NCBI GenBank assembly: GCA_965223665.1
Contig: OZ245011.1
Span: forward strand, 544,001-608,000
Source of the DNA: Nitrospinaceae bacterium
GTDB lineage: Bacteria; Nitrospinota; Nitrospinia; Nitrospinales; Nitrospinaceae
Length of the DNA stretch: 64,000 nucleotides
Direction of reading: 5' to 3'
The first letter of the stretch is position 1. Each line of letters starts with the position of its first letter. The notes beneath the pieces were generated by a model. The model had not been told where the DNA came from, did no database searches, and saw nothing but the letters and a program-made list of their open reading frames with translations. Of the stretch, positions 9,636-27,839 are shown piece by piece. Position numbers and translations under genes: made by a program.

Positions 9636-9892
9636 TTAGAACATTTTGATGATTTTTTCTTTGCTTTTCGTAATTAAACTACTATTTCTTATATGCTCTA
9701 AAGTTTTTGCAAGAAAATTTCACATCATAAAAATCAAATAAGCAAAACTGACCAATAAAATTGAGAAGAAACTAAATACCAGACTGGTTAGTCTTATCTT
9801 ATGTTCACTTAGAGTCGTTACTTTTTTATTCTTAAAGTAACAGATATTACAACCTGTACCTTTCACCGTTATTTCCCAGAATCTTTTTCCAC

Positions 9893-10043: not shown

Positions 10044-10346
10044 GGTAACTTTTATTCTATTCCGATAGGAATTTCTACCACAGAAAGGCTAGAATTTGAT
10101 CACCGCTATCGAATCCCTACCGTTATCAATAACAGGATTTGGTCATACCCATACCCTTTCTTAAATTAAATAGCAAAAACGAGGCAAACACCCGTATTTC
10201 ATACCTTTTGATTGATTCTAATTGAAATCCGTGTTCCTTTGGATTAGAATCTCGTTCTGGAATTCCTAAAAACAATTTAAATTTTTGGCAGTCAATTTGG
10301 TAATTCAATTGACTTTTTTTTCACAAATTTTTTTCAAAAATTTAAT

Positions 10347-12206
10347 GTGAACATAAAAAATCTCGTTTTTCGAATTTTTTGGCCGGAATTAAAAAGGGTC
10401 GAAAGATTGAAATGCCTAAAAATTTGGAATACAGCTAATCAGCAAGTTGAAGCTCTTTTTGAATTGGAAAAATCCATTGCTGAAAGATTATTCCTTAAAT
10501 TAACCGTTTTTTTAGAAACCACTTCATTTGATTGGGAAAGGGAAAACACCACCTGCGATATAACAGAATTTTCTCAATTCATTTCAAGACTGAAGAAAGA
10601 AGTGGAAGTTATTAGAAAAAAATTTACGGCAGAAACAAAAAACCCAAAACTTTCTGATCAAAAGCACATTTTACAAATTCACTCTATTTTTGAAACCTTA
10701 GAAGAAGTTTTTGCTTCAATCCAGACTTTAGAAATTTCTTTAAACCACACCCAGGAAATTTCCAAAAATTATTCTACTTCCCTAGATATTCCTTCTCTTA
10801 AAAAGGAAATTAAACAATCTTTATCCGAAACTTTAACTAGAGTGGAGCAAGTATTGAACTGGATACACCCATCAGAGTTTTATTTTAATATTTTTTCAGT
10901 ATTGTATTATCCTCTATTTTATAAATGGTTAGTGGCAATATATTTCTCCTTAAATCCAAAAGGTGCTCTAGGAACGGAAGAAAAAAGATTCTTACTTCAA
11001 TGGGAATTTCTTAAGCTTTACAATATTATTTCAAATACTTTAGCTAATTCCCCAAACAAAAAAAATCTCCAAATTGATTCAATAATAGATTTTTACCAAT
11101 CGTTTGAAAGTTTGCAAAAGTTGGCGGGAAATTCTTTAGCAAAATTTTGCCTACAGATTGTTGATTACAAAGAGGGTTCCAATGAGAATGAAAAATACAT
11201 ATCCAAAATAATAGCAGCGGGATTAAAGCAAGGGGGAAAAATGACTATACACCCTAGCTTCATCTATACTATCTCCCCATATTTGCCTCAAGAACGCAAA
11301 CAAAAAATAATCGAAAAAGTTTTTTATTTGGTAAATGAAAAGATTCAAAAAATTATTCAAAAACAATGGATAAATTATCTTAGAACGTTAAAACCTGTTG
11401 TGAATCATTATTCGAGCAATCAACTGCGTTTGCGGAAAGTAATAAAAAGCTATTTGAAAATCAAAACCCATTTATTAACCGTTAATGGCACAGACTTTTC
11501 GAAATCTAGTCAATCACAAAAAATTATTCAGGAAAAATTGGCGCATGAAGATTCTACCGTTTTTGCGACAAACTTGGATAGGCGCAGAGAAATTTTGTTT
11601 TGGAAACGGGGAGGCTTGGCAACTGTAAGAACTCATATCCCTTGGGAGTATTTTCAATTTGACCCGAAGCAGATTGGAAAGGTCCATCGATATTTAGGAT
11701 TTTTAAAACGAACTCTTGGAACACAATGGGATAAAAAACTTTGCCAGTCCAATTTTGATAACATTAATTTTAGTAATTTCCAGCAAATTATTGATGAAAT
11801 AGTTGAAGAGTGGATGTTCCTTTTTCAAAAGGAAAGTGAATCTATTTTTCAATCTCTAGCCAAAACATTAGAAAAAATTGCTCATGAAAATTCAAAAGAA
11901 TTTAAATCATTCTGTACAGATTTTCTTTTAGATATATTTTCATCAATTGATGAAATGGAAAATGGTCATTCCCTTCCTATCAAACAACAATTTCAAGAAT
12001 TATTTAAACAACATGGATTGCAACTAATTTCCCCAGTGGTGGGAGATTTTGTTGATTTCGAACAACACGCTATCGTTTCTAACGAAACAAAAGATTTAGT
12101 TGAGGGGGATCTCATAGTTTCAAAAGTAATTTGCCATGGGCTAATTAATACTATGGACAACCGAGTATTTAAAAAATCTGAGATTGTGGTCAGGAGGCAA
12201 TTGTGA
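10347..12206 (+). CDS. Large helical protein with a C-terminal GrpE-like domain
   Basis: C-terminus FQELFKQHGLQLISPVVGDFVDFEQHAIV...VSKVICHG...RVFKKSEIVV matches the GrpE head pattern. Confidence 0.72.
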   Translation: MNIKNLVFRIFWPELKRVERLKCLKIWNTANQQVEALFELEKSIAERLFLKLTVFLETTSFDWERENTTCDITEFSQFISRLKKEVEVIRKKFTAETKNPKLSDQKHILQIHSIFETLEEVFASIQTLEISLNHTQEISKNYSTSLDIPSLKKEIKQSLSETLTRVEQVLNWIHPSEFYFNIFSVLYYPLFYKWLVAIYFSLNPKGALGTEEKRFLLQWEFLKLYNIISNTLANSPNKKNLQIDSIIDFYQSFESLQKLAGNSLAKFCLQIVDYKEGSNENEKYISKIIAAGLKQGGKMTIHPSFIYTISPYLPQERKQKIIEKVFYLVNEKIQKIIQKQWINYLRTLKPVVNHYSSNQLRLRKVIKSYLKIKTHLLTVNGTDFSKSSQSQKIIQEKLAHEDSTVFATNLDRRREILFWKRGGLATVRTHIPWEYFQFDPKQIGKVHRYLGFLKRTLGTQWDKKLCQSNFDNINFSNFQQIIDEIVEEWMFLFQKESESIFQSLAKTLEKIAHENSKEFKSFCTDFLLDIFSSIDEMENGHSLPIKQQFQELFKQHGLQLISPVVGDFVDFEQHAIVSNETKDLVEGDLIVSKVICHGLINTMDNRVFKKSEIVVRRQL

Positions 12207-13933
12207 GTTTACTCAGGTTAGGTCTAGACTTAGGAACCACAAACATCACTGCCGTTATCTGGTCTGAAAAAACAAATAGCTTTGAACCGGTGATCATGCC
12301 TGAATTGTGTGACGGCAAAGGGGTTATTTCAGCAGTTTCATTCAAAAAAGGAGATAAATATTTTTTCGGTTCTAAAGCAGAATCTTTAATTCAAGCAGAG
12401 GGTCACCGACACAACTCAGATATATCTTTTGAATTCAAAAAATCCTTTGGAGAAAATATTTCACCAGAGGAGAGAGAAGAAAAAAAAAGAATTACAAAAA
12501 ATTTGATCCTAAAAATCTTAAGCGAGGTTATGAAAGAACGCAATGAAGATCAACTTGATCTGGTCATTGGCCACCCGTGCGCTCCCTTGTCAGAAAACCT
12601 AAAAAGTGTTTACCAGGAAATTTTTGGTTCACTTATGAATAATGTAGATGTAGGAGAAGAAAAAGCTAATGAATTAATTCTTAATAAATACAAGGAATCG
12701 GTTGTTATTGTTCAAGTCAAATATATGTGGGAGCCTATCGCGGCCTGTGTTGCCATGAGTCCACAAATCAACTGGGAGGAAAATTGGAAAAAAGGAGATT
12801 GCTTGTTGGTAATTGATGGAGGAGGGGGAACTCTTGACATGACTCTGCTGCAAATAGTGGAAGGGGATAATGCGCAAGAAAGTAAAACTCAGGAAGGACC
12901 ATTGTTTGTTGCTCTTAAACGTATTCACTCGGATGGAAGCAGTGAATTAGGCGGAGGGCGTATTGATGAAGTGTTGATCAATAAATTCGACAAACACCTT
13001 ATTGATCATACCCAGATTGCTCCCCAGGATAATGATTTTTTTTGTTTTGCGAGGAACCGTTTTGTTAAAAAATTAAAAGAAATTTTTTGTTCGTATGAGG
13101 GCAATAAAGACTTAAAAGAAAAGATTGAGAAAATTCAACCCATCGCAAAAAATCATTTTTTCCAAGCAATTTCTAAAGACTTTCCTCTGGAAGGCCTCGA
13201 AACGGCAATTAATTTATTTAAAGAAGAATTTCATAGTGACGAGGACATTGCTTTTGGTGAGGGAATCATTGAGTTTAAAGAAACACTCAAAAAGTTTTTT
13301 AGAGAATTTTTTGATAAAGCGTGCAACAAAATTTCAAGCGACAATCTAGAGATCAAAAAAATTTTATTTTGTGGTGGTGCTACAAAGGTCCGCTTTATTC
13401 GGCAATTGGCTATAGATCAATTTAAGCCGATTATAGAAAATACCCAGTCAATTCCCCAAGAGGAACAACCCTTTCTAGTTGGAGAAGGATGTGCTTTTAG
13501 ATGTTATATCAATGCGCATCGATCTATGGTTGGGTTAGAGAAGTATAGTGACATTCGGGCGGCCTGGGGCATATTTTCTGAAGATATTGGACTACAAGTG
13601 GGACAGGAATGCGTACCTATTTTTTTGGCGGGAGATGGCATTGAAAGTGGATTGCATTTACAAAAATCTGTCTTTTTCCCCTGTGCCGGCGACGAAATTG
13701 ATCCAAAGTTTTGCATGAACAAAAATGGAAAACTCATATTGTTGGATTCGAAGCAACTTAAATGTTCTGGCCCCCTTCAATGGGAAGGACCGGAAGATAT
13801 TATCTCTGTAACCTTAACCGCTTATGAAGCGGAAGAAAAATTAGAGTATGAAATTTTCACCCTTGATAACAATATGAAACGTTCACAAGAACTGATTAAA
13901 GGAACCTTTGAAAATTTAAAATTTTATGAATAG
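12203..13933 (+). CDS. Divergent Hsp70-family ATPase
   Basis: GLDLGTT, WEPIAA, VIDGGGGTLD, LGGGRID, LFCGGATK motifs; GTGA overlap with the upstream gene. Confidence 0.88.
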   Translation: MSLLRLGLDLGTTNITAVIWSEKTNSFEPVIMPELCDGKGVISAVSFKKGDKYFFGSKAESLIQAEGHRHNSDISFEFKKSFGENISPEEREEKKRITKNLILKILSEVMKERNEDQLDLVIGHPCAPLSENLKSVYQEIFGSLMNNVDVGEEKANELILNKYKESVVIVQVKYMWEPIAACVAMSPQINWEENWKKGDCLLVIDGGGGTLDMTLLQIVEGDNAQESKTQEGPLFVALKRIHSDGSSELGGGRIDEVLINKFDKHLIDHTQIAPQDNDFFCFARNRFVKKLKEIFCSYEGNKDLKEKIEKIQPIAKNHFFQAISKDFPLEGLETAINLFKEEFHSDEDIAFGEGIIEFKETLKKFFREFFDKACNKISSDNLEIKKILFCGGATKVRFIRQLAIDQFKPIIENTQSIPQEEQPFLVGEGCAFRCYINAHRSMVGLEKYSDIRAAWGIFSEDIGLQVGQECVPIFLAGDGIESGLHLQKSVFFPCAGDEIDPKFCMNKNGKLILLDSKQLKCSGPLQWEGPEDIISVTLTAYEAEEKLEYEIFTLDNNMKRSQELIKGTFENLKFYE

Positions 13934-16900
13934 AAAATTCAAAAAATTTAAAAGTTTTATTTTTTTAACGATGGTTTTATGGTTGGTTGCCAATTTTTTG
14001 ATGCCCAACGTTGCTCTGCCTGAAAACCCTCAATCAAATGACCAGCATCATATTATTTTAATGATGGATAAAACCCATTATATGAATAAGGGATTTAAGG
14101 AAGATTTCTCGGATGAAATTTCGCAACGTCTTCAAATCATTTTTTCAAAAGATTTACCAAATATACTAACCAGTAGTCATAATAACAGGGTTCTCTATAA
14201 TAAAGAGAAAGACTATCTTAGCATTTTTCCATTCGGTTTAACTAAGTGGAAACCCAATCTGGAAAATAATTATTTTTATGATAAATGTGGAAATCGTCGT
14301 AGGCCTACTTTAAATAATTTCCAAAAAAATCCGACAAAATCATGCACCGATCTTTTAAGCTTTAAGAATGTTAATCCAAATGAAATATTGCCAAAATACT
14401 TGCAAGCATTCCAAAACCAAAATAAGAAAAATAAAACTTCAAAAAATCCCTTTTCAAGAGAAAGTGCCGAACTACCATTCGCACCCTATCTGGGACTTTA
14501 TAAATCATTTATCGATTCCTCAAAAAAATATGAATTTGAAAAAGTCAAAATTTTAATATTAACTCATGGTGATTCACATTTTGAAGAAGTAAATTCGGAC
14601 TTTAGCAACCTTTCCTTAATACAAAAATCAGAAAAATTAAGTAGCAAGAAAAAAAAACAATTTTTAAAAAATTCTAATTTCGATTTTCTCAAGAAAATCT
14701 ATAAAGGCATTGCTAAAACTCTTGACGTAACAAAGGTGGATTTTACCCAATCCTCCCTTACAGAAAAGGGTTTTCAACTATGGATGTATGAGGTTACCCC
14801 AAAACCTATCAAATCAAGTGATTTAATAATATCGCAATTAAAAGACAATCAAACGGCCCTGGAATTGCCAGAAGATGATAACTGGGAATTGTCACTCAAT
14901 GTAGAGGTAAAAAATAAAGATTTTGATGAAAGTGAAACTTTTCCCCTAACCTTTCACAAGGTGGAAGCCGATGTTCAAATACCAGGGAGCGATACATTGG
15001 ATTCTTTGCATGTAAAATCTAAAACCATTAAATTAAGATTTTCGAATGCGCCTCCTGGGTCTACCCTCTATTTAACTTATTGGTTTAAATCCAATTTTTA
15101 TCCATTTTTTCTGATTGAGAGTGAAAGGAAAGAAATTGCTTTGACCACTCCTTCCTTATTTGAAAAAATATCCCGAAATTGGAAGAGTTTGACGTTCTGG
15201 GGAATTTTGGCTACTTGCTTCTTTTTTATATTACTAAGGCAAATCCTAGGAGATATTAAGTATAAGCTGAATATACATTTAGTGAAAAAAATTCCTGAAA
15301 TCTATGCATTTGAATCTTTACAGACCTCTGAATCAGAGAATTTCCTAACTATAGGAAAGTTAAAGTTGGAACGGAAGGGCCTTATGATGAGTTTAGCTCC
15401 GGCTAAAATTATCTGCAAGGAATTATCTATAAAATCCACTATGATCCAGCAAAAACGAGTGGGTTTGAATTCTTATCCTTGTTCCGCTGTCAAACTTTAT
15501 TGGAGCGGCGGCCATCCTTTCAAAATTATAAAGGGTAAATTGCCAGCGGAAAGTTTTGATCTTCGTCTTGACTATAAAGAACTTCAAAAATTAAAAAATA
15601 CCCAAAATGGGGATTCAAACCCATTCTTCCCGCAAAATATTAGTATTAGTTTTTCCGTGTCTTTTGAGGCAAAGCGGAGATTTTGGTTTTCCCGCGAACC
15701 TCAAAAAACCCTGGAACAAGCTTCTTTTCCAATTCGATTATTACCTCCTGTAACTGGCAAATCTCTGGAAACAATTAATTTAATTGAAAAAACTCAATTT
15801 CAAAAAGGTCTTCTACCTATCGGAATTTTGACCATCCGCCCTGAGGATATGGGCCACTTGTTTCCGAACAATCAAATTTTTGCGTTTCGGTTATCTAACG
15901 GAAACAAGTCCATACCCATATTTTTTAAGTTAAATTTTAATACTTCCAAAGTCTCATCAGATCTCAGCGCCTTAAAAGAGGGTGCGGAACCTAATACACT
16001 GGAAGGAAATTTAAATATTGAAACTGCTTTCAATGAAGCTGAAACCAATAAAGAAATCCTAAAAACTGTTCTAAAAGTCTTTCAAAAACAAGAAACTTTT
16101 AAAGAAATAGAAAATAATATAAACAAAGGAAAAGAAACTGGTATTTTAAATCCTGAAGTTGTGTTTAACCAAGGAGCCTATTTAGAAACTAGAGATTTTG
16201 GGAAGCTCATGCACTGCCGTTTTCTAACAAAAAAAACTCTGCCCATTTTACTTTATACCGATCTTTCCGAAATAAGAAATCCAGCCGATCAGATGGGATT
16301 GACATTACAAAAAAAATCAGCAAATGCTTTAAAATCCTACGGGCAAGCCAAAGGGTGGATTGATTTGGACGAAAAATTAGTTATTACTCGAAATGATGAG
16401 GTAACCGAATTCGTATGGGATTTCGAGGACATGGAAAAAAATAAAGTTTTTAAATTTTCCTCCAATGACACGGATCCTTCAATATTTTCTGAATCTACAA
16501 AAATGGAAGTAATCTATCACGCTAGGAATTGGGAAAACCTGGGGAATTTGCCCATTGGGATTCTCCAATTGGGTGATAAAGCAGTTCATGGTACAGGCTT
16601 TGTCGAAATATCTAATATGAATGTGAAAATAGAATCTGAAGATATTCAATGGAAGGCCTCAATAGATAAAAATGATTCCATATTATTTGAAGGTTCTTCC
16701 AACCAGTCGGATCCGCTCAACCTTTGGAGCTTTGAGCAAAAATATCAAAATTGCAAAATTAGTTCTGAATCGATTCGATGGGAAGAATATAAATTGATCA
16801 TTGATCGACCGGCAAAATATATTGAAAATATCACCAAGCCCGATGGAGTTCTCACATTAAAATTTAATTTTAATGTGAGAACCGTGGAGGAAGAAAATAA

Positions 16901-18932
16901 GATTGATGAATCCAAGGAGATTACTATTAATTGGGATTTGATCATTACTTTAGGCCCACCAAAAACCACCTTTTTATGCATTGACATTGGAACATCGGCA
17001 ATCGCTTCGGTACTACTGGACACGACAGACCAGGCAACGAGTCCCCCAAAAGTTTTGCCTTTACATGATTTTCTTGATGAAGATAGAAGAAAAGAGCAAA
17101 GCCCTAATTTAATATCTTCAACTATAATGTTAAGCAATCAAATCGAAAAGGAGTCCGAGGAAGGGTATTTCCAATTATCGCCCCCTCCTTATGTGGAGCA
17201 ATCCAGTGCAAAGTATTTAGTACCTTATTTTAAAAAATTGGCGGGCTACCACAGTTTGCCTTCATCTATTTTCAATGAAGATTTTTACTGGTTCGATAAT
17301 CATGATAATAAAATAAAAGGTGCGCCAACAATTGAATCCATTTTTCTACGCCTGTTTAAAACCTTAATAGATGATTATTTTATTTCATATTTTAATGAAA
17401 ACAAAATGCTTTCGGTGATCCGGAAAGTTCTTATTACTATTCCCAATAATTTTTCAAGTTATCACCGAACCATCATTCGGAAAGGGTTTCTGGACGCATT
17501 AGGAGAGCGGTATAAACCCATTTTTCTAAGAAATCCGGAAATTGACATTGAATTTATCAGTGAATCTGATGCGGTGGTGTTCTACCACGGTTACAATAAT
17601 AAAACCAACATTCAAAAAAATTCCGAGAGGGGCAATGCTACTGAGCATGTAATTTGTTATGACATTGGAGCGGGAACATTAGATATCAGCTATGTTAAAG
17701 TGAATTATGCTCCTCAAACAGAACACCTGAGAAATGTAGAAATTTTAGGGAAAATGACCAGCGGTCAAGCAGGAAATTACATTGATTATTTAATTTGTGA
17801 TTGGATTTTAAAAAAATTAGGGCAGCCAAACATTTTATCCGAACAATTAGAGGGATCTTCTCTTAAATCTGCTGTAGAATTTCGCAACAGTGTTGAAGAA
17901 GAAATCAAAAAGGGTTACTCCACAAAGGACAGCGATACTAATCTTATCACTAATGATTGCAAAGCAAAAATTACTGAGTTTATTGAGGAAAAATTTAAGG
18001 GACATTCTCCAATTCCTCCAGAAAAAATTGAAGGCCTTAAATTAAGTCGAGAACAATTTGAAGAAGATATATTAGATTCTTTTATAGATGAAAATGGTTC
18101 CAAGCTTTTTGATTTCTTAATTGAATTGATCAATTTTGAACAAACTGCGGAAAGTGACCGAAAAATAATTGTCGACAGCCTTATTTTTTCTGGAAGAACT
18201 TCAAAGCTAAAATACCTCAGGGAAAAAGTAGAAGAGAAAGTCAGGAGCATTCGGCAGACAACCGGAGAATTAAAATCATTCCATATAGGAGGAGAGTCTA
18301 AAGTTGAAAACCTTGCCAATCTAAACGGAGGAGACCCCTCCAAACTGGCAGTTGCTCTGGGAGCAGCTTCTTACGCGAGAAATAAACTTGACCGGATAGA
18401 AAATTCTATCATAGAAGCTAAATCCCTAATGCAAGTGGGATTGATTGTTGATTGGACGCAAAACCCACACAAACCCCTTAAAGATTATATTCCTATTGTA
18501 GATTATTTGGATGTTAAGGAAAAAATAATCCATAGAGAAATTTCTGTCGTGGTAACTTATAAGAATGACGTCATAGATAATTGCACTATTAAAGATGAAA
18601 ATGGAAAATGCCTTGCAGAAAATGATGGCCCAATTATTGAGTTAATTCTTTGTCAAAACTTTTTGCCTGAAAGTGTTTTCCAAAATATCAAAAACTATTC
18701 TCAAGAATTAATTCATAATCTGTACACTCCGATTTATATATTTAGCCAAAATGAATTCAAAAGAAATCCTACTACTCCCGATAAAATTTGTATTAGCATT
18801 GATCTTGAGAAGTTTGACACCAAAATTACTCATAATGAAACGCCTACAATCCTTAAGGGAATTACGATGGATAATTTGAAAGGGGATGAGGGGTTCCATA
18901 AATCTGGTTGGCCATATTCAAAATGCAAATAA
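13926..18932 (+). CDS. Membrane-spanning protein: signal peptide, degenerate vWA-like domain, TM helix, C-terminal Hsp70/actin-fold ATPase
   Basis: Signal peptide; IILMMDKT..M and ILILTHG (vWA-like); TM FWGILATCFFFILL; CIDIGTS, ITIPNNF, ISESDA, YDIGAGTLD, AGNYID, FSGRTSK, AVALGA. Confidence 0.8.
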   Translation: MNRKFKKFKSFIFLTMVLWLVANFLMPNVALPENPQSNDQHHIILMMDKTHYMNKGFKEDFSDEISQRLQIIFSKDLPNILTSSHNNRVLYNKEKDYLSIFPFGLTKWKPNLENNYFYDKCGNRRRPTLNNFQKNPTKSCTDLLSFKNVNPNEILPKYLQAFQNQNKKNKTSKNPFSRESAELPFAPYLGLYKSFIDSSKKYEFEKVKILILTHGDSHFEEVNSDFSNLSLIQKSEKLSSKKKKQFLKNSNFDFLKKIYKGIAKTLDVTKVDFTQSSLTEKGFQLWMYEVTPKPIKSSDLIISQLKDNQTALELPEDDNWELSLNVEVKNKDFDESETFPLTFHKVEADVQIPGSDTLDSLHVKSKTIKLRFSNAPPGSTLYLTYWFKSNFYPFFLIESERKEIALTTPSLFEKISRNWKSLTFWGILATCFFFILLRQILGDIKYKLNIHLVKKIPEIYAFESLQTSESENFLTIGKLKLERKGLMMSLAPAKIICKELSIKSTMIQQKRVGLNSYPCSAVKLYWSGGHPFKIIKGKLPAESFDLRLDYKELQKLKNTQNGDSNPFFPQNISISFSVSFEAKRRFWFSREPQKTLEQASFPIRLLPPVTGKSLETINLIEKTQFQKGLLPIGILTIRPEDMGHLFPNNQIFAFRLSNGNKSIPIFFKLNFNTSKVSSDLSALKEGAEPNTLEGNLNIETAFNEAETNKEILKTVLKVFQKQETFKEIENNINKGKETGILNPEVVFNQGAYLETRDFGKLMHCRFLTKKTLPILLYTDLSEIRNPADQMGLTLQKKSANALKSYGQAKGWIDLDEKLVITRNDEVTEFVWDFEDMEKNKVFKFSSNDTDPSIFSESTKMEVIYHARNWENLGNLPIGILQLGDKAVHGTGFVEISNMNVKIESEDIQWKASIDKNDSILFEGSSNQSDPLNLWSFEQKYQNCKISSESIRWEEYKLIIDRPAKYIENITKPDGVLTLKFNFNVRTVEEENKIDESKEITINWDLIITLGPPKTTFLCIDIGTSAIASVLLDTTDQATSPPKVLPLHDFLDEDRRKEQSPNLISSTIMLSNQIEKESEEGYFQLSPPPYVEQSSAKYLVPYFKKLAGYHSLPSSIFNEDFYWFDNHDNKIKGAPTIESIFLRLFKTLIDDYFISYFNENKMLSVIRKVLITIPNNFSSYHRTIIRKGFLDALGERYKPIFLRNPEIDIEFISESDAVVFYHGYNNKTNIQKNSERGNATEHVICYDIGAGTLDISYVKVNYAPQTEHLRNVEILGKMTSGQAGNYIDYLICDWILKKLGQPNILSEQLEGSSLKSAVEFRNSVEEEIKKGYSTKDSDTNLITNDCKAKITEFIEEKFKGHSPIPPEKIEGLKLSREQFEEDILDSFIDENGSKLFDFLIELINFEQTAESDRKIIVDSLIFSGRTSKLKYLREKVEEKVRSIRQTTGELKSFHIGGESKVENLANLNGGDPSKLAVALGAASYARNKLDRIENSIIEAKSLMQVGLIVDWTQNPHKPLKDYIPIVDYLDVKEKIIHREISVVVTYKNDVIDNCTIKDENGKCLAENDGPIIELILCQNFLPESVFQNIKNYSQELIHNLYTPIYIFSQNEFKRNPTTPDKICISIDLEKFDTKITHNETPTILKGITMDNLKGDEGFHKSGWPYSKCK

Positions 18933-21406
18933 TTCAAAAGTTTTTTTTAATTTTCATTTTTTTCCTCATTCTATTGGGAAACATACCTATTACAGAAGCA
19001 AATAAACAAGAACTTCAATCCAAGTATTTAGTTTTTTGGTACACGCAATTCTTATTTAATGAACAAAACCCAGAAAAAAAAATAAAGTTAGCAAATCCAA
19101 TCATTATTTTGAATTTTTTTAAAGTAGATTCAAAAGGTAATTTTTTTGAACGAAAAGAATTGGGATTTCACATAAAGAAAAAGAGTAAGAAAAATGAAAA
19201 AAGTATAATTGGAGGGGGTGCCGATCACGAGAGTTTTTATAAACTCCTTTTTGACGCTTCGGTCAAGGACAAAAAGACTTTAAATACTTTACAGAAAATC
19301 TTTAACTCGGGTTCCAAAAAAAAGATAAATATAAGCTCATATCTTTTAAGGTCTTTTTGGAAAAATTTATTCCAATATTTAAATCGTTCTAAAGACTATT
19401 CCGACTTAAAAAATAATTTTAATTTGCAAGTGTCCCCTGTTCTAGAGCCTCCAAACAAAAACTTTCAAAAAAACTTATTAAGCGAAAATAAAAAAAATAT
19501 TAATTGGTCGAATATCCAATTCCCCCGAGAGTTATTAGAAAAAAACAGTCCTGAATTTAAGAAACTTATTGAGGCCGCAAAAGAAAGGGAAAACACTCAC
19601 AAAGAACCCGAACCCGTTCAACCTAAAGAAATAGAATCCCAAGTCAACGACAACAACACGTCTCCTTTATTAGAGCAACCCAAAGCAGAAGTTCCCTTAA
19701 ATAAGGTAAAAAATTCTAAACCTTCCAACAAAATATTAATTTTTACTTTGATTGTTCTCATAATACTTTTGTGTTTTGCGTTGTTTCTTGTTTTCAAATT
19801 GAGGAAAAGAAACAATAGCTTAAAATTTAAAATCAACGGAATATTTTTAAATTTAAATTATTCGTCCAAGGGGCATGATCAACAAGAAATGAGGAAAAAC
19901 GTTGAAGAGGATAAAACCTATGATGAAAAATACGACTTAATAATATTTGAATTGAAACGTTTAAAAAACTTAGCTAACACCTCCAACTACCAGGAATTTA
20001 TTGACGAAGTAAAAAATCAACTTCAGTTCTCCAACTATTCTTATACCCAATGGGTCGATAGCTTTTCAGATCATGACCCAGCAAAAACTGTAGCTCGGAT
20101 ATTAGGACAACGAATTTTAAATTTACAGAATGAAGTTGATAATTTTAAATCTACAGAAAGCAAAATAACAGAAGAGATAAATGTCCTTTTAAATTCAAGC
20201 GAACCAGAGTTTTCAATTAGTTTTCAACATTTGCTAGATAGTCATAAAGAGTTAAATAAGGAATTAGGAAGCAAAGATAAATCCTTTCAAACTGAAAAAG
20301 AACAACTTAATATCGAAATTGATAAACTGCTGAAAGAAAATAAAGTGTTAGAAAATTTTGCATGCTTTATTAATAAGACGCAATCTCCTTATAAAATAGA
20401 AAAAGGATTGCCTAAATCAGATTCACCGAATTCTCAATCCCCCCTTGAACTTAATAAGTCTAATTCCATTATCACTAAGAAAATGAAACAAATTGTTTCC
20501 ATCCTTAAAGAGTGGGAAAAGCAACGATTGTTTCCCATGGCACTCCCTTCTGCGGAAATCCGCGAAGATTTTATTTTCGATGGGATACAAACAGGAGAGT
20601 ATCTTACAGATATTCAAAATTCCTTAAAAGAAAACCTCAAAATAGTAAAATCCAGGTACAAACAACTCGGTATTAGTCCTTTAGATTTAGATTGTCATTC
20701 ATCGAAGGAAGAAAGTGTTTTCAGTGAAATTAAAGAAAATATTCGTCGGTTAAATACAATTGTAAAATATTTAGCAGAGCACGATACAATCCTTACTGAC
20801 TTATCTTCGACTCAAAAAAAAATAAACAAATTTTACGAAAAAATTATTTGTTTGGATTATGATTCAGAGGAAATTTTTGTCGACGGAAATTTTAACGAAT
20901 TAAAATTTAAACATTGGACGTTTGAGCAATTAGATCCCATTTTACGACAACCTTACCGAGGATTACTCATTTTGTTCCAACGGTATTGTTATTTTTACCC
21001 AAAGGTTGATTCAAAGATGGAAAGTTTCCGAAAAGAAAGTCGCAAAAATATAAAATATGGAAATACTCCTGAAATCAGAACACTCATCCGGTTAGCCAAG
21101 GCCGAAGCCGTAAAAATTGCAGAAATGCTAGGAATTACCTATCACGAAATTGAAATTTTTGAAACAGCTTTCAACAATGAATCCCACAAACTGGATGGTG
21201 GAAATAATATACATGAATACCAAGAAGAATGGGTTCAATTTTTAAGATCGCAAATACAAGAGGGAAAGGAAGATTTATTTGAAAATCGAATTATTGGAAT
21301 CCAATCATTTGGTTTCCAATCTCGACTTGATGAAATTGCAGATGAAAAAAGCGTGGTTCAAATCTTTCAGAAAGCATATAAAGAAAATCTTTTAGGTACT
21401 AAATAA
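18923..21406 (+). CDS. Membrane-anchored coiled-coil protein with a C-terminal divergent GrpE-like domain
   Basis: Signal peptide, Pro/Glu linker, TM ILIFTLIVLIILLCFALFLVF-KLRKR, coiled coil, C-terminal LGITYHEI..FETAFNNESH...IIGIQSFGF...KSVVQI; ATG 18923 overlaps the upstream stop. Confidence 0.6.
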   Translation: MQIIQKFFLIFIFFLILLGNIPITEANKQELQSKYLVFWYTQFLFNEQNPEKKIKLANPIIILNFFKVDSKGNFFERKELGFHIKKKSKKNEKSIIGGGADHESFYKLLFDASVKDKKTLNTLQKIFNSGSKKKINISSYLLRSFWKNLFQYLNRSKDYSDLKNNFNLQVSPVLEPPNKNFQKNLLSENKKNINWSNIQFPRELLEKNSPEFKKLIEAAKERENTHKEPEPVQPKEIESQVNDNNTSPLLEQPKAEVPLNKVKNSKPSNKILIFTLIVLIILLCFALFLVFKLRKRNNSLKFKINGIFLNLNYSSKGHDQQEMRKNVEEDKTYDEKYDLIIFELKRLKNLANTSNYQEFIDEVKNQLQFSNYSYTQWVDSFSDHDPAKTVARILGQRILNLQNEVDNFKSTESKITEEINVLLNSSEPEFSISFQHLLDSHKELNKELGSKDKSFQTEKEQLNIEIDKLLKENKVLENFACFINKTQSPYKIEKGLPKSDSPNSQSPLELNKSNSIITKKMKQIVSILKEWEKQRLFPMALPSAEIREDFIFDGIQTGEYLTDIQNSLKENLKIVKSRYKQLGISPLDLDCHSSKEESVFSEIKENIRRLNTIVKYLAEHDTILTDLSSTQKKINKFYEKIICLDYDSEEIFVDGNFNELKFKHWTFEQLDPILRQPYRGLLILFQRYCYFYPKVDSKMESFRKESRKNIKYGNTPEIRTLIRLAKAEAVKIAEMLGITYHEIEIFETAFNNESHKLDGGNNIHEYQEEWVQFLRSQIQEGKEDLFENRIIGIQSFGFQSRLDEIADEKSVVQIFQKAYKENLLGTK

Positions 21407-21512
21407 AATTTCCATATTTTTTTATTATTTTAAGTGATTAAAAATTTCAAAAAGGATGCCATTTTTGTATTTTGTAATCCTAAATTTCCCATAAATAAAT
21501 TTCTTCAAGCCA

Positions 21513-24500
21513 ATGGATTTTTTTTCACAATTGTTAACTTCAACACCGGGCCTAATCGTATTTACTGGTGGAGGACTTCTCTTTATCTGTTGTTGGTTGG
21601 ATCTCAAAGAAGATTCAGACAAATTTTCAATTAGAACTTATGCAGCACAATTAATTCCGTTCATTACTCTTTTTTTAGTTTTATTGGTTTCTTCACCCTC
21701 CTTGCAAGGGTTTCGTTTTTCGTACAATTATTTTTCCCTCCCATTTTCTGATGACCAAGGCGTAAAAATAGGCGGTAAAGGTAAAAATAGTTTTTTTTTG
21801 AAGGATAAAAAAACCTTTGAAAACACAAATGCATTGCTGTCCTACGTTCAGGTTTTTAAGGATGGTTCTATAGAAACAAACAATAATCAAGAAAAAGGGG
21901 ATTTTCTTCTTTTAGTGAACAAAATCCAATCAGGGAAGGATAACGGATATTTAGGAGGACATCGATTAAAAATTGGAGATATTATAAACGTTAAAAATTC
22001 TAATAATAAAAATTATCAATTAAAGTTTTCTAAAAATAAAGATGGAGATTATTATTTTCAATCGGCCCAACTAAAAAAAGATTATTTATTCGCCAAAACC
22101 AAGTCCAAGAGTTTTACATTAAAAAAAACCTGTCGACCATATTTTTCCAAGGGTAGAGCCTTATATTATTTAGATAATATCTTTCGGCAGATGAATGAAT
22201 CCGCTCAGTCTAGTCCCACTAATCTAAGAAAATTTTATAGAAGCATAATTTTTTGTGATCCAAACCTATCAAAAATTAACGATGGGAAAACGACAAATTT
22301 CATTTTTATCCCTAGAGATAAAGATGCGATCGTCATGGACTCACATAAGCCAATAGTTTCCTTGGAAATAAAATTTCCTGTTCAATTAAAAGTTTATAGA
22401 GTCAGTAAACCCCAAAGAAAGGACTTCGAGAAAATTTGCTATGGATGTTTTCATGGCAAATTAACCACTTACAATAAATTTGAACTTTCACAATCGAATT
22501 TATCTTCTGATTTCCTCCTTATTCGCCCTCAACCGACACCCTTTGTTTTTTTTCATACCGAAACTAAAAAGGAAAGTTTTCAAAATCCCACAATTTCATT
22601 TGGGGCAAAACTAGCAGCATCGAATTTGATCCTCTTAACTCCCTCAAAAGAATTTGAGGATTTCTCCTATAAAATTCACATCGACCGCAAGAAGAAAAAA
22701 ATTACATTCACTGGATCGAATGGTTCTTTATCCGCTAATTTTTCAGAAAATATTTTAATTCCTAAGGATGAAAACTCAGGGCAAATTAATTTAAAGTTTG
22801 AATTATTGGGGTTTCCTTGGTGGTTGATAGGCATCTATTTAGTATTTCTAGCTTTAAAATTATTTTTATTGTGGAATTTAAAATTAAATCCCTCAAAGAC
22901 TCTTTTATATAGCTTATTATCGATTGAATATTTTGTTTTTCTTAAACTTTTATTTTCTTTTAAGGCTTCATTTCTATCACCATATGATATAGAGCCATTA
23001 GAAATAGCAATATTGACTCTTTTCCTTTTTTTAGCAACGATATTAGTGGTACACACCTGGCTTAGTTTCTACTTATTGGTTACAGAAATCATTTTCGATG
23101 ATTTTGCCTCGTCAAAAACATCCAAGAGAAATGTTTATGTAAAGAATCTCTTTTTGAATTTAGGATTAAAATATCTTTTTCTTCTTATTGTTTTTATTGC
23201 GGCAGCTAAATCTCTTCTTTATTTCAAAGCGGGGGAGCACCCTCAGGTGCCGAGCACCCTTCAAGAAATTCTTTCACCAAGTATATTATTATGGATTTGG
23301 CCTCCTGCATTCTTTTTCACATGGGCATTCTCCTATAGTTTCTATAAAAAATTCCGCAATATTTATTTTCCAAAACTCTTTAGGTCAACTAATTCCCCTT
23401 TCAAAAAAATTCTAGAGCATCCTATCGTTGCTCGTATTCGAATAAAGGGAAAGAAACTACTAAAAATCAAAGATCCAAATCATCAACCCTTATTTGCTTC
23501 CATCGTTCAGTTATACCTTTTGCTATTTGTATGTTTTCTAGCCTGGAGTTTTGGAATTAGAGAAAGAATTTCCGGAATGTTCCAGCTTTCGATTATCATT
23601 GTTCCTCTATTCATATTTTTATTTGCGAAAGTGTTTTATAACACATTTTTAATATACTCAGCTGAATTAGAGAATAAGAGAGGAGAAAGCCAACCAAATA
23701 TTTTTCTAGAGTTTTTAATTTGGTTATTTTTTCCCTGCTTAGCATTTTATTCTCATTTAATTGATGATATTGGCCTTTTCGTTCTACTCTCGGTGCCAAT
23801 GATTTTTCTAGCCGTAGCACTAATTCTCGCAAAGTTTAATTTTGTCAAAACAAATTCGATTAGGATAATTATTGGGCAAGTCAAATTTATTCCACAAATT
23901 CTGGGGATTTTAATAATAAAAATAATCGATTGGTTCGCGAAATTATTTAAAAAAATTTTTCCGAACAACCTAGAAACATTTTTTATTTGGAAAAAACGTT
24001 TATTTTTGACGCATCTTCCTCAAATAAAAAAATATTTTTTTATCAATGGAATGATGTTTCTTTTTGTGGGATATATTTTATTTTTAATTTTCCCACAAAG
24101 CTTATATGGGGCATTCTTGTATGTCAAATCTTCTTTCCAAGAAAAACTAGAAATTGTAGAAACCCAACCACAAGGCGGCTTGGATAAAAAGAATTCATTT
24201 CTCGAAACTTTGATCGCTAGCACTGAAAACAAAATGCTTTATCGATTAGCATCTCAAAAAGACTTGGTATCCGCCAAAGGAGATATTAATTTTCAGGGGA
24301 TTGATGAACATTTGTTTTTATTGGAAAGCTATAGCCTTCCGGGAACACAAGTTTCTCAAGTTTTATTTGGAAATGGATACTTGCGAAATAGAATTCACCC
24401 GTCATTAAATAAAGTTGGTTTGAATGATAACGCTGTAGGAGTTTTCATGTTATCAGAATTCGGTTTATTTGGTTTTTTAGGATGTTTGATGGCTTTGGGG

Positions 24501-24776
24501 ATATTTGCCCTGGTTTGGGCTTTTAATATTAAACATTCTCCAAAAATAATTTTTCATGAATATTTGCGCTGGGTGATTTGCTTTTTTCTTTCCAGCGCAC
24601 TTATCATTTACGCTTTTTTATACATGACAGGTGTTAACTATAACGTTTGGCCATTAACTGGAAAAAATATTTATTTTTGGGGATTGAATTCAAAAAGTGA
24701 CTCCCTAGAAGCAATCTTATTATTTGGATTGCTCGTATTTTCTCAAATGTTACTTTCCAAAAAAATAGAACAATAA
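21513..24776 (+). CDS. SEDS-family (FtsW/RodA/SpoVE-like) polytopic membrane protein with a large N-terminal soluble region
   Basis: More than 12 TM segments; FGNGYL, NDNAVGVFMLSEFGLFG, VNYNVWPLTGKNIYFWGLNSKS resemble the SEDS GLG, TDF..EE.G and N.G..P.TG..LPF.S.GGSS motifs. Confidence 0.78.
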   Translation: MDFFSQLLTSTPGLIVFTGGGLLFICCWLDLKEDSDKFSIRTYAAQLIPFITLFLVLLVSSPSLQGFRFSYNYFSLPFSDDQGVKIGGKGKNSFFLKDKKTFENTNALLSYVQVFKDGSIETNNNQEKGDFLLLVNKIQSGKDNGYLGGHRLKIGDIINVKNSNNKNYQLKFSKNKDGDYYFQSAQLKKDYLFAKTKSKSFTLKKTCRPYFSKGRALYYLDNIFRQMNESAQSSPTNLRKFYRSIIFCDPNLSKINDGKTTNFIFIPRDKDAIVMDSHKPIVSLEIKFPVQLKVYRVSKPQRKDFEKICYGCFHGKLTTYNKFELSQSNLSSDFLLIRPQPTPFVFFHTETKKESFQNPTISFGAKLAASNLILLTPSKEFEDFSYKIHIDRKKKKITFTGSNGSLSANFSENILIPKDENSGQINLKFELLGFPWWLIGIYLVFLALKLFLLWNLKLNPSKTLLYSLLSIEYFVFLKLLFSFKASFLSPYDIEPLEIAILTLFLFLATILVVHTWLSFYLLVTEIIFDDFASSKTSKRNVYVKNLFLNLGLKYLFLLIVFIAAAKSLLYFKAGEHPQVPSTLQEILSPSILLWIWPPAFFFTWAFSYSFYKKFRNIYFPKLFRSTNSPFKKILEHPIVARIRIKGKKLLKIKDPNHQPLFASIVQLYLLLFVCFLAWSFGIRERISGMFQLSIIIVPLFIFLFAKVFYNTFLIYSAELENKRGESQPNIFLEFLIWLFFPCLAFYSHLIDDIGLFVLLSVPMIFLAVALILAKFNFVKTNSIRIIIGQVKFIPQILGILIIKIIDWFAKLFKKIFPNNLETFFIWKKRLFLTHLPQIKKYFFINGMMFLFVGYILFLIFPQSLYGAFLYVKSSFQEKLEIVETQPQGGLDKKNSFLETLIASTENKMLYRLASQKDLVSAKGDINFQGIDEHLFLLESYSLPGTQVSQVLFGNGYLRNRIHPSLNKVGLNDNAVGVFMLSEFGLFGFLGCLMALGIFALVWAFNIKHSPKIIFHEYLRWVICFFLSSALIIYAFLYMTGVNYNVWPLTGKNIYFWGLNSKSDSLEAILLFGLLVFSQMLLSKKIEQ

Positions 24777-24779
24777 ATC

Positions 24780-27700
24780 ATGGCCTATTCAAGTGATGAA
24801 AAACTTAATATTTCATTTTTAAAAAGGTGGTCGGTTCACTTGGCTGGCCTTCTTGTTATTTTTTTGTTGTTTAATTTACTGGTTTCTATCGGAAATAAAA
24901 TTTTCAAATTTGCAGCGAGTGATGAATCCACCCGATCTTATAATCCCACCGAGTATAACAAACTAGTTAATCATTTAATTGAAGACGAAAAAATTTGGTT
25001 GTTAAAAAACCAATTAGGCCGGGATGATCAATATAGAATTGCATATTTTCAATGTAAGCATTGCGATAAAAAAAATATCTCTATTCTTCATGAGATTCTT
25101 GAAGCACAAAATAGAAAACAGATTAAAATTCTCGCAACTGAGTTAACTGACAGTCATTTTAAGAAAAGATTACAAGCTTACTATAAACCATTTAATAAAG
25201 AAAAAATCAAAAAAGCTGTTAGGCAATATTTAAAAAACAAAGAAAATTCCTCTGAATGGAATGAAAATTTTCAACGTCTTATTCTAAAAAAAGATATAAA
25301 TGATTTTAATAATGGAACCACAGGTTTATTTAAAATAAGTGACGGTGAATTGAAGGCTATTGAACCAAAAAGTCATTCCATTCCAAAACCCACCCGAGTG
25401 ATTAACCGCTGGAAAGGCGATCTACTATTTAGACCAGAAAAAAATAGTTTTATTGAATTGAATGACCATCGAATTGTATTAATTCCGCCCTCTGGAAACG
25501 AGGTCCCAAAGTGTCTGCCCTTATCACTCAAAAATCTTCCCAGAACAGCAAACTGCATTATCTTTAAAAACATTGTCAAAATTGACTATGGGAAGTGTCT
25601 CGATACAGAAAAACAAAATTCTTTCTATATAATAAACCAATCCGAAGACCACGTTCTGAAAAGAAAGAAATCAAAAAACGAAACTAAGGACATAGAATAT
25701 TTGGGCAATACGTGCACCGTTTTTAATATTGATCGTAAAATGGAATTTACACTGGTTAAAAAAAATCAAAACAAAGAAATTATAAACATTAAATATTATC
25801 CTAATGGAAAAGGTGAAAAAATAAACATTATTCAAAACCAAAATGGCCGAGAAAAGAGAGTCCAATTGAATGATTCTTTTCCAATGAATAAAAACATTGC
25901 CACAGTAATTGATGAGTTAATCAAAACAGGAATCATTTCCCAAGATGACCTTACAATCGAAAAAATCAGTGGGACAGAACATCCCAATATCAATTTAACT
26001 TTGGACCCTTTGCTTCAGGAAAAGTTACAAAAAGAATTAAGTCATTATGCTTTAAACACAAAAATTATCTCAGAAAGACCTTTTAAAGGGTCCATTGCGG
26101 TGATGGATATAAAATCTGGAGATCTATTGGCCTTGGCAAGCTTTCCGGATCCAGCAACGATGGATACCTATAAAAATACTTTGAAATGGCGACAAAACCA
26201 TAAATTGGAATTATATGAAAATAACCAGAATTTCGAGCCGCATTTCATTGGATCTATTACCAAACCCCTATTAGCAGCCACCATATTGAATAAAATTCCT
26301 GATCTAGTTACTTTACGAATTGGAGATTATGGCAAACTTTCTTCCGCCGAAAAAATTCCGAAAGATAAAAAAAACAAATTTTATCCATCAAAAGATTTTC
26401 TGGGATTTCGGTTAAGCAAAGGGATTACTGACTCTTCTTTTCATTTTTATAATGTATCAAAACGAGGGGAATGCGATCGCGGAAGATTTCCAATTGGATT
26501 TCTTGAGTTTTTGAAATATTCAAGTAATCGGTACATGTTTAATCTTTTCTTTTTAGCTGTTGCCCATCAGCTACAAGGAAATCATTTATCTCTGGTAACA
26601 ACTAATCGGCCTTTAGAATGTGGAATAGTAAAGTTGAAGAATGAAACAATAGAGTATCAACCTCAATTTTCCCCATTTTTTGACACTTCGTATAAAAACC
26701 CCATTGTTAACTGGAACCAATTAAAATGGTTGGATGCTTCGATCCGTGAAAACTTTACAATTTTCCCTTCCAAAGATAGGAGAGATGGGGAGAAAGATGC
26801 AAAGCTTTCTAATACCCAAAAGCAGAATTTGAAAATTAAAATGTTAAAAATGGAAACGGATTATTCCCATTGGTTTTCGCTCATTAAAGAAGGTCTTTGG
26901 AGTAATTATGTTTTGAGACAATTCAAAGGAATTTCATATCCAAAAGTTCATTGGAAATTGCATTCAAATCACCACAACCGTCTTAACGATCTTCGAGATA
27001 TATTACTAGGGGCAGGAGAAAACAAATGGTCCAATATTGCCTTGGCAGAGATGTTTGCCACCCTGGTAACCGGAAAAAAGATTAATAGTAATCTGATTTT
27101 CTCTTCTAACGAAAATCACGATGATAACTCTTTCGATGAATTTAAACTGCAACCAGCTATTCGTGAAAAAATTTTGCAAGGTCTTTCATTAGTAATTATG
27201 CCCGATGGAAGACACAGATTTGGTAACCACGGGGGGGGGACAGCCAATTTGTTGTTCAATGAATTTTTTAAAACCAATTTTCCTATGCAAAATGTAAATA
27301 GGGCTATATCTAACTTTGGAAATTTAGAGTATAGAAAGTTAATTCGACGTCAACTAAATATGATGAGCCGAGCCACTTATAAATTTTATGGAAAAACAGG
27401 TACTTTTAACATAAAAAGTAGAAAACGTGGTAAAACACCTCCCTCAGGAGGTGCTTTTATTTTTGCGATTGTAAAATTAAAGAATCAAAAAAAATCTGTT
27501 TCAAAACCAATTAACAAACTTAACGCATCTATTTTAGAAAAGGCCACCGAAGTTTATGATAAAACACGACAACTCGCAAAAGATTTACTGAAAAAAGCAG
27601 AGGATCTCGTAAAAGAAAACAATAGTATTTATAAACAAGGTAACTCAAAACTGAAAATGAGCTATAACAATATTGATCGGGGAGTAGTTGTAGCTATTCA

Positions 27701-27839
27701 TCTCGATTATCTTGGAGACAGCTCTAAATCAGTTAGGTTAGCCAATTGCATTTGGACACACATTATGGAAGTTGTGGAAACCAAACCTATGAAAAGACAA
27801 ACTCAACTCCCTCAGTATTGTAATAAGAAAAATTTATAA
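24780..27839 (+). CDS. Class B-like penicillin-binding protein (transpeptidase)
   Basis: N-terminal TM; LTLDPLLQ, GSIAVMDIKSGDLLALAS; SxxK (SITK), SxN (SSN), KTG (GKTGT). Confidence 0.9.
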   Translation: MAYSSDEKLNISFLKRWSVHLAGLLVIFLLFNLLVSIGNKIFKFAASDESTRSYNPTEYNKLVNHLIEDEKIWLLKNQLGRDDQYRIAYFQCKHCDKKNISILHEILEAQNRKQIKILATELTDSHFKKRLQAYYKPFNKEKIKKAVRQYLKNKENSSEWNENFQRLILKKDINDFNNGTTGLFKISDGELKAIEPKSHSIPKPTRVINRWKGDLLFRPEKNSFIELNDHRIVLIPPSGNEVPKCLPLSLKNLPRTANCIIFKNIVKIDYGKCLDTEKQNSFYIINQSEDHVLKRKKSKNETKDIEYLGNTCTVFNIDRKMEFTLVKKNQNKEIINIKYYPNGKGEKINIIQNQNGREKRVQLNDSFPMNKNIATVIDELIKTGIISQDDLTIEKISGTEHPNINLTLDPLLQEKLQKELSHYALNTKIISERPFKGSIAVMDIKSGDLLALASFPDPATMDTYKNTLKWRQNHKLELYENNQNFEPHFIGSITKPLLAATILNKIPDLVTLRIGDYGKLSSAEKIPKDKKNKFYPSKDFLGFRLSKGITDSSFHFYNVSKRGECDRGRFPIGFLEFLKYSSNRYMFNLFFLAVAHQLQGNHLSLVTTNRPLECGIVKLKNETIEYQPQFSPFFDTSYKNPIVNWNQLKWLDASIRENFTIFPSKDRRDGEKDAKLSNTQKQNLKIKMLKMETDYSHWFSLIKEGLWSNYVLRQFKGISYPKVHWKLHSNHHNRLNDLRDILLGAGENKWSNIALAEMFATLVTGKKINSNLIFSSNENHDDNSFDEFKLQPAIREKILQGLSLVIMPDGRHRFGNHGGGTANLLFNEFFKTNFPMQNVNRAISNFGNLEYRKLIRRQLNMMSRATYKFYGKTGTFNIKSRKRGKTPPSGGAFIFAIVKLKNQKKSVSKPINKLNASILEKATEVYDKTRQLAKDLLKKAEDLVKENNSIYKQGNSKLKMSYNNIDRGVVVAIHLDYLGDSSKSVRLANCIWTHIMEVVETKPMKRQTQLPQYCNKKNL

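Follow-up and report, generated by a model that had tools for sequence, protein, structure and literature searches.

The stretch of DNA considered here, referred to as the window, comprises 64,000 nucleotides from the genome of a Nitrospinaceae bacterium (GenBank assembly GCA_965223665.1, contig OZ245011.1, positions 544,001 to 608,000 of the forward strand, numbered from its first letter), and encloses at 10347-27839 an operon of six large genes, the products of which are designated P1 to P6 in gene order. The operon is carried by a mobile genomic island and encodes two Hsp70-type ATPase domains, in P2 and P3, and a domain resembling the class B penicillin-binding proteins (PBPs), in P6. It is tentatively read, at a probability somewhat short of even, as an island-borne, self-contained accessory envelope machine, in which the Hsp70-type ATPases would gate a synthase made up of the PBP-like P6 and a possibly SEDS-like protein, P5. 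An initial annotation, made from the letters of the DNA without database searches, had described the same interval as a mobile operon joining two Hsp70/GrpE pairs to a SEDS and class B PBP peptidoglycan synthase, in the order GrpE-like, Hsp70, membrane-anchored Hsp70, membrane-anchored GrpE-like, SEDS and PBP. In this order the Hsp70-type P2 and P3 and the PBP-like P6 have been borne out and P1 has a GrpE-like end on weak but concordant evidence, while the GrpE assignment of P4 was lost and P5 gave no SEDS profile match. Accordingly, of the two proposed Hsp70/GrpE pairs there are left two Hsp70-type ATPase domains with one GrpE-like partner, P1, since P4 is without a GrpE signal.

Gene structure of the operon

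The genes of the operon, its one sizeable gap and the best upstream promoter-like site are as follows.

10347-12206, + strand: P1, 619 aa, no hydropathy-predicted membrane segment, N-terminal ~500 aa without family match
12203-13933, + strand: P2, 576 aa, soluble
13926-18932, + strand: P3, 1668 aa, bitopic membrane protein
18908 or 18923-21406, + strand: P4, 832 or 827 aa, bitopic membrane protein, no family assigned
21513-24776, + strand: P5, 1087 aa, polytopic membrane protein
24780-27839, + strand: P6, 1019 aa, class-B-PBP-like
21407-21512: P4/P5 gap, 106 bp, the sole sizeable intergenic gap in the operon, bridged by public contigs
10222-10250, + strand: best promoter-like site upstream of P1, TTGAAA-17-TAGAAT, 10/12, a consensus match only

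The six open reading frames (ORFs), of 576-1668 aa, are co-oriented on the + strand of 10347-27839, and their packing as first described, with the same coordinates, overlaps and lone 106-bp gap, was reproduced in full from the ORF list and the sequence. At the P1/P2 junction the GTG start of P2 is laid over the TGA stop of P1 (GTGA at 12203-12206), with AGGAGG upstream; the overlap between P2 and P3, whose ATG is at 13926, measures 8 bp, and that between P3 and P4, counted from the ATG at 18923, measures 10 bp, a TTG farther upstream, at 18908, being open as well; the ATG of P6 at 24780 comes 3 bp after the P5 stop. The G+C content of the operon, 32.9%, leads to the expectation of one stop per ~13 codons, and at this composition the chance of an open frame of at least 576 codons is ~4e-20. 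A consensus scan found no terminator-like site in the 106-bp gap. Neither promoter-like nor terminator-like sites are commoner here than in shuffles, the promoter-like ones numbering 61 vs 70.4 +/- 9.2. A 38-nt stretch upstream of P1 (10294-10331) is 71% identical to one lying across the P5 start (21498-21535), with a common run of eight T followed by CACAA; this likeness is probably due to chance, and it could also represent a shared control element.

The assembly was checked with the Logan contigs of public runs belonging to one study, namely three runs of one sample, supplemented by small pieces from another, in which 0 differences were found over 9000-11195, 10864-13334, 13332-18062 and 16485-28500. 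The P3/P4, P4/P5 and P5/P6 junctions are bridged by these contigs, the P1/P2 junction is situated inside one contig, and the P2/P3 junction (13926) inside the contig covering 13332-18062. Since the runs are probably the source sample of the window, the match checks the assembly and not independent biology. Candidate contig joints with sides of 20-24 letters at 80% likeness were taken as spurious. The Logan contigs carry the same sequence and no variant. The summed contig depth at 22671-23321, inside P5, reaches ~72 in two runs and 30 in the third, vs ~5-12 in the neighbouring bins, and may be raised by contigs of other organisms that match this T-rich membrane-coding stretch at 80% likeness.

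According to hydropathy, P1 and P2 are soluble, and large parts of P3, P4 and P6 are predicted outside the cytoplasmic membrane. The membrane anchoring initially ascribed to P3 and P4 agrees with their hydrophobic segments, and P6 is predicted to be anchored too. In whole-protein scans Pfam gave hints in just two of the six proteins, both sub-threshold (HSP70 for P2, Transpeptidase for P6), and a Walker A motif was found in none of the six.

Mobility of the island

The features that define the island and its first module are listed below.

5133-5179, + strand: left attachment (att) repeat, an exact 47-nt copy of the tRNA-Pro 3' part
50501-50577, - strand: tRNA-Pro(CGG), whose 3' 47 nt (50502-50548) constitute the right att repeat
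5308-6579, + strand: tyrosine integrase of the island (Arm-DNA-bind_3, Phage_int_M and Phage_integrase, Pfam E 2.9e-20, 3.4e-20 and 7.3e-12; NF007246, 2.3e-37)
7996-8739, + strand: HTH_36 protein, replication-initiator-like (HTH_36, 2e-08; PHROGs replication initiation O-like and DnaD-like, 3e-05 to 1.7e-04)
9132-9635, + strand: small terminase subunit, P27 family (TIGR01558, 6.5e-19, over cut-off; Terminase_4, 2.6e-20; phrog_83, 1.9e-37)

Mobility is the best-supported part of the finding: the description of the operon as mobile is sustained by the exact 47-nt att repeats, by the adjoining integrase and by an empty site in a congener. The window contains two exact copies of the 47-nt att sequence, 100 shuffles contained not one, and the island enclosed between the repeats is 45.4 kb long. 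In the congener, the sequences that flank the island on the left (3000-5132 of the window) and on the right (50501-53300), each 86% identical, meet at one coordinate, so that the whole 45.4 kb is absent there. The G+C content is 33.7% in the island and 32.9% in the operon, with 38.3% in the genome, and a value as low as that of the operon occurs in 0.5% of the 17.5-kb genome windows.

The operon sits directly after the integrase, replication and small-terminase module, by which the island appears phage-satellite-like, with an atypical size. The island resembles the phage-inducible chromosomal islands and P4-like satellites in having integrase, replication and small-terminase genes ahead of the cargo, and in the integration in a tRNA gene with a direct repeat; however, with 45 kb it is several-fold larger than is typical, and no capsid-redirecting or helper-sensing genes were recognised on it. 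A second satellite-like module is found in the same genome on the 7.7-kb contig C3 (1-7749), with an integrase (145-1332), two genes of no known family, a DnaB-like helicase (3535-4833), a small terminase (5024-5503) that is 88% identical to that of the island, and then a 490-aa cargo gene. The terminase region alone (610 bp, 86%) is shared by contig C3 and the window.

Hsp70-type ATPases P2 and P3

The assignment of Hsp70-type ATPases, proposed initially for both proteins, holds for P2 and for the C-terminus of P3 (hhalign 99.6% and 97.8%, respectively). In P2 the nucleotide-binding domain comprises residues 1-440 and is followed by a C-terminal part of ~135 aa. An exhaustive phmmer search of 1.84e9 representatives returned P2 itself and eight weak matches (E 3.5e-7 to 6.7e-4), all eight of which carry PF00012 strongly. 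The alignment of P2 with Hsp70 in hhalign (E 1.2e-24, 370 columns) was made with a set of eight sequences drawn from these weak matches of P2 and the host DnaK, P3 not being used in picking them. The scores of P2 stay below the curated cut-offs, with 18.8 bits for PF00012 (cut-off 20.6) and 28 bits, E 6.5e-7, for the DnaK model (cut-off 822).

In P3, hydropathy predicts hydrophobic segments at 11-29 and ~424-442, an outer domain of ~390 aa and a cytoplasmic stretch of ~540 aa, which precede the C-terminal Hsp70-type domain:

17337-18398, + strand: Hsp70-type ATPase domain of P3, residues 1138-1491 (hhalign 97.8%, E 1.2e-12, 285 columns)

Other scores of P3 were 0.003 with HscA of NCBIfam and E 0.147 with PF00012. 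The PADLOC model PDC-M61B matched the ATPase domain too, at 5.6e-10, but just locally, along ~65 residues that correspond to positions 342-407 of its 588; a full-length match was not found. The remaining parts of P3 gave no Pfam family at E 1. A vWA domain, suggested for the outer domain by a pattern seen by eye, was rejected, as PF13519 has nine matches in the genome and none in P3, and Pfam at E 1 gave nothing.

Both in P2 and in P3 the alignment with Hsp70 ends at the end of the ATPase domain, and a substrate-binding domain with its helical lid was not found there. The MreB model PF06723 detects neither protein, and the NCBIfam models that match them are only those of DnaK, HscA and other chaperones. 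The match of P2 to the "partition protein" profile phrog_691 was discarded as a sign of a ParM role, this being a generic actin/Hsp70-fold profile, which also matches MreB, DnaK and FtsA.

The class-B-PBP-like enzyme P6

The initial naming of P6 as a PBP was upheld, the protein being class-B-PBP-like (hhalign 95%) with intact catalytic motifs. It has an N-terminal anchor (hydrophobic residues 19-37, preceded by K/R residues), and SITK 492, SSN 581 and KTGT 872 follow in order, with longer spacing than usual and large insertions. The region that carries the assignment is the following.

25515-26294, + strand: pedestal-like region and transpeptidase start of P6, residues 246-505

In hhalign these residues align with 30 class B PBPs at 95.0%, E 3.8e-8, over PBP columns 104-325, with the SxxK motif placed on theirs. 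A hidden Markov model (HMM) built of the same number of class B PBPs gives P6 29.3 bits; the PF00905 scores are 20.1 bits for the whole protein and 22.6 bits for a fragment (cut-off 22.1), and that of NCBIfam pbp2_mrdA is 26 bits, 2.4e-6 (cut-off 455). The host retains two SEDS proteins and two class B PBPs of its own, therefore the set in the operon is accessory.

The candidate SEDS-like polymerase P5

P5 is predicted, from helices and hydropathy, to begin with two N-terminal hydrophobic segments and a non-membrane domain of ~375 aa, and to continue with ~12-14 segments, having a loop of ~90 aa before the last three; this loop with the three last helices resembles the SEDS layout. In an atlas of language-model features, 21 of the 30 matches of P5 belong to PF01098 clusters (score 0.92, 169-170 of 256 features shared), and the other nine are without family. 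By eye, the motifs EPLE 494, NDNAVG 971, EFGLFG 982 and PLTG 1047 can be noted, which contain the D...E.GL.G and P.TG patterns. Thus, the initial SEDS call is favoured by the atlas features, by these motifs and by the position beside the PBP gene, whereas Pfam, the class-specific HMM, hhalign and the shuffles do not favour it, and P5 is possibly a very divergent SEDS-like polymerase. The AlphaFold2 model of P5 made without an alignment has a mean predicted local distance difference test score (pLDDT) of 38.6 and is unusable for the fold.

P1, P4 and the GrpE question

The GrpE likeness of P1, as it had been annotated, persists for the C-terminal part of the protein, where several weak lines (PF01025, fragment Pfam, shuffles and PDB) are concordant.

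11979-12191, + strand: GrpE-like C-terminal domain of P1, residues 545-615, within the GrpE-like last ~100 residues

In the genome scan this end is the third-best PF01025 match, at 15.9 bits, E 0.02, over profile positions 97-163 of 165. For residues 450-619, GrpE is the top Pfam family (21.3 bits, cut-off 25.8, E 2.4e-4), the alignment running up to the profile end. With an HMM of 21 Nitrospinota GrpE sequences, the score of the P1 end was reached by none of 1000 shuffles; with hhalign, P is 0.0035 and the probability just 9%. In the PDB, two mitochondrial GrpE chains match the same residues (E 0.44 and 0.85), among nine weak matches. The C-terminus of P1 is therefore called GrpE-like on weak but concordant sequence evidence. 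The AlphaFold2 model of P1, made in the same way as that of P5, is likewise unusable for the fold (mean pLDDT 37.7).

The GrpE-like character first attributed to P4 was not confirmed, Pfam, hhalign, the shuffle test and the language-model atlas all being without signal. P4 has no Pfam match at E 1, its GrpE hhalign P is 0.25 for the whole protein and 0.033 for a fragment, 337 of 1000 shuffles do as well with the GrpE HMM, and its best atlas score is 0.77. By hydropathy, it has hydrophobic segments at 8-26 and 276-294 and ~535 aa on the cytoplasmic side. Elsewhere, a second canonical grpE is situated at the end of the window (63594-63998 and beyond), adjoining the single canonical dnaK of the genome. 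PF01025 has two matches per genome in all 19 sampled genomes of this order; in other orders of the class (n=7) there are 0, 1 (five genomes) or 3.

Other contents of the island

Downstream of the operon, the island bears the following cargo, and a housekeeping gene lies near it.

28349-29320: triple-HTH (helix-turn-helix) regulator
29331-30320: protein with a GH17-like C-terminus
35387-36169: ankyrin repeats
40025-40690: AbiU2-type HEPN
42663-44024: TonB_C/TPR protein
44291-45295: endonuclease I
45640-46734: SIR2-like protein
49046-50293: trypsin-like protease
51684-53243: LeuA-like housekeeping gene, near the operon-bearing island

The AbiU2-type HEPN, the SIR2-like protein, the trypsin-like protease and the triple-HTH regulator are matched by defence-library models. 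About 10 further ORFs without family are found in the remainder of the island (28349-50293). One island ORF (37720-39069) contains seven 45-nt tandem repeats at 38674-39027, which encode 15-aa units rich in Ser and Gly, with a weak beta-roll or ice-binding-like Pfam hint.

Search for relatives and for prior descriptions

Word-index searches of 5.8e9 clusters with P6, P3 (950-1668) and P5 (430-1087), which depend on shared words and length windows, returned the query itself only. P2 was found in none of 40 relatives, and when the 119 remaining genomes of the phylum were searched with P6, just two short matches appeared, at ~1e-4. No relatives came to light among contigs from genomes, viruses or metagenomes; tblastn against phages and plasmids gave none except one PBP-like match of 11%, and no paralogues were found elsewhere in the genome. 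In the published literature, supplements excepted, no description was found of Hsp70/GrpE genes joined to SEDS/PBP genes, of SEDS-class B PBP fusions with horizontal transfer, or of SEDS/PBP in anti-phage defence.

Proposed working and comparison with known systems

As a rule, a class B PBP functions together with its cognate SEDS protein, and because of this P5 and P6 are treated as a putative synthase pair, in which the P6 transpeptidase and the adjacent P5, a probable very divergent SEDS-like polymerase, would jointly make or remodel peptidoglycan. FtsA and MreB, which belong to the same fold superfamily as Hsp70, gate FtsW-FtsI and RodA-PBP2 together with bitopic proteins, and it is by analogy with them that a gating role is suggested for Hsp70-type domains on a bitopic protein. 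P3 and P4, with their large outer and large cytoplasmic parts, would pass the nucleotide state of the P3 ATPase across the membrane to the synthase. P1, with its GrpE-like end, may be the nucleotide-exchange factor of P2, to which it is translationally coupled, and the P1-P2 pair could provide a cytoplasmic input or an assembly step. Tight coupling of the six genes on one strand speaks in favour of a coordinated working. The biological role may be envelope repair or fortification, or defence; this role, the SEDS activity of P5 and all the protein-protein contacts in the scheme are what we infer from the arrangement of the genes and their likenesses. In its fullest form, which is held to be rather unlikely, the proposal is that a satellite-like island delivers a private peptidoglycan machine, whose gating across the membrane would fall to Hsp70-type ATPases with a GrpE-like factor, not to actin- or tubulin-like proteins, so as to fortify, repair or wall off an envelope under attack.

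The recognisable parts are of known families, and the logic parallels the known control of synthases, so the system is not categorically new. With the SEDS-class B PBP pairs (RodA-PBP2/MrdA, FtsW-FtsI, SpoVE-SpoVD) it has in common the alignment of P6 over the pedestal and SxxK, the retained SxxK, SxN and KTG motifs, and a polytopic P5 with SEDS-like atlas features 3 bp upstream. However, P5 and P6 exceed those proteins two- to threefold in length and contain large insertions, and P5 fails the SEDS profiles; besides, they are island-borne and linked to Hsp70-type genes instead of dcw or mre, in a host with canonical pairs. The likeness to DnaK-GrpE consists in the Hsp70-type ATPase domains of P2 and P3 and in the GrpE-like end of P1, translationally coupled to P2, as the host grpE adjoins dnaK. 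It differs in that the scores of the operon proteins fall far short of the curated cut-offs, P1 is extended N-terminally by ~500 residues, a J-protein is missing, and one Hsp70-type domain forms the tail of the 1668-aa membrane protein P3. With the FtsA- and MreB-directed divisome and elongasome, as a working analogy only, the operon would share a membrane-located ATPase belonging to the actin/Hsp70 fold superfamily, bitopic partners and a SEDS-PBP pair, whereas P2 and P3 are nearer to Hsp70 than to MreB, and the operon has no FtsZ-, MreC/D- or FtsQLB-like genes.

Weighing of the explanations

A number of points weigh against the reading of the operon as an Hsp70-gated wall synthase. The finding rests on one genome, and P2, P3, P5 and P6 are without a detectable relative (P1 and P4 were not among the database queries), so that the gene set cannot be shown to be conserved, nor its catalytic residues to be under selection. 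An HPD motif is present in none of the six proteins, DnaJ has no Pfam match, and there is no J-domain. When P2 is compared with single host sequences, DnaK and one MreB score about equal, hence its placement in the Hsp70 subfamily rests on the profile and the database matches. The transpeptidase domain of P6 aligns significantly up to SxxK only, the rest being long insertions, and P4 has no recognisable fold. The polymerase call for P5 is unproven: the genome scan with PF01098 missed P5 even with the threshold relaxed to E 10, and Pfam gives no match either; against 29 SEDS proteins the HMM E is 0.74 and the hhalign probability 0.1%; 201 of 429 scored shuffles do as well as its C-terminal part; and the level of its atlas score is reached by 4-10 of 100 shuffled proteins.

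The main rival is a conflict system of the abortive-infection type, in which the Hsp70 and exchange factor would be a sensor or threshold, and the PBP-like and polytopic proteins would be effectors that derange host wall synthesis or the membrane once an invader is sensed. This explanation is unlikely, with a real chance of being right nevertheless, as the operon follows directly on the integrase, replication and terminase module of a satellite-like island, and the extreme divergence and orphan status of its proteins suit fast-evolving conflict genes. The HEPN, SIR2-like, trypsin-like and multi-HTH genes on the island point the same way by their defence-library matches, but as neighbours they supply context only; the local match of the P3 ATPase domain to the candidate defence protein PDC-M61B also speaks for it, though limited to ~65 residues. 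A precedent is given by the GTPase-centric conflict systems of the GAP1-N2 type, in which HSP70 with GrpE occurs in ~14% of the GTPase neighbourhoods (Kaur, Burroughs, Iyer, Aravind 2020, eLife; PMC7159879). The predicted conflict operons of that paper combine HSP70 and GrpE, at times with a second HSP70-only protein, and effectors taken over from cellular subsystems are described there as well. However, the present operon has no GTPase family match or other core of the published Hsp70-GrpE theme, in keeping with the lack of Walker A, and a PBP or SEDS component is not mentioned in PMC7159879, from which the words penicillin, FtsW, RodA and transpeptidase are absent. Moreover, the intact triad of P6 favours an active enzyme over a dominant-negative decoy.

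It is doubtful, though weighed seriously in view of the negative SEDS profile tests, that P5 is no SEDS polymerase and the operon has a different task in the envelope, for example signalling, or exporting or assembling a surface polymer, with P6 being a DD-peptidase or a domain for sensing beta-lactams or muropeptides. The ~14-16 helices of P5, vs 10 in SEDS, its extra domain of 375 aa, and the alignment of the first third alone of the P6 transpeptidase domain agree with such a task; on the other side, PF01098 is the sole family indicated by the atlas, the alignment of P6 runs through the pedestal, a region typical of class B PBPs, and the P5 motifs resembling the SEDS C-terminal signature stand in the right order. 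Acquired low-affinity PBPs are exemplified by mecA on SCCmec and by the ftsW-psr-pbp5 operon of enterococci. A comparable role, in which a mobile SEDS-PBP pair insensitive to drugs or toxins would sustain wall synthesis when the host enzymes are inhibited, is very unlikely here: a PBP-like gene that is accessory, borne on a mobile island and intact in its triad, in a host that keeps its own enzymes, would suit it, but the four other large genes, with their Hsp70-type and membrane-spanning parts, are left unexplained, and no resistance-type context was seen on the island. Most improbable is an inert or decaying cargo, the genes of which would be intact and no longer functioning together; the failure to detect relatives of P2, P3, P5 and P6 is compatible with it, but six frames of 576-1668 codons stay open in DNA of 33% G+C, the start/stop overlaps are preserved, and so are the catalytic motifs in P2, P3 and P6.

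Significance

The current picture of SEDS-PBP regulation comprises FtsA/FtsZ and MreB with their bitopic activators. If the reading as an accessory envelope machine is true, mobile elements can recruit wall synthases and control them by the cycle of Hsp70 and its exchange factor, and both this recruitment and the Hsp70 control would be outside that picture. The Hsp70-type ATPases without J-proteins would thereby gain a concrete membrane client. Whole multi-gene envelope systems, moreover, can escape the standard domain models. If the operon is understood as such a machine, wall synthesis would come under a new mode of control, and the Hsp70 cycle would take on a new function.

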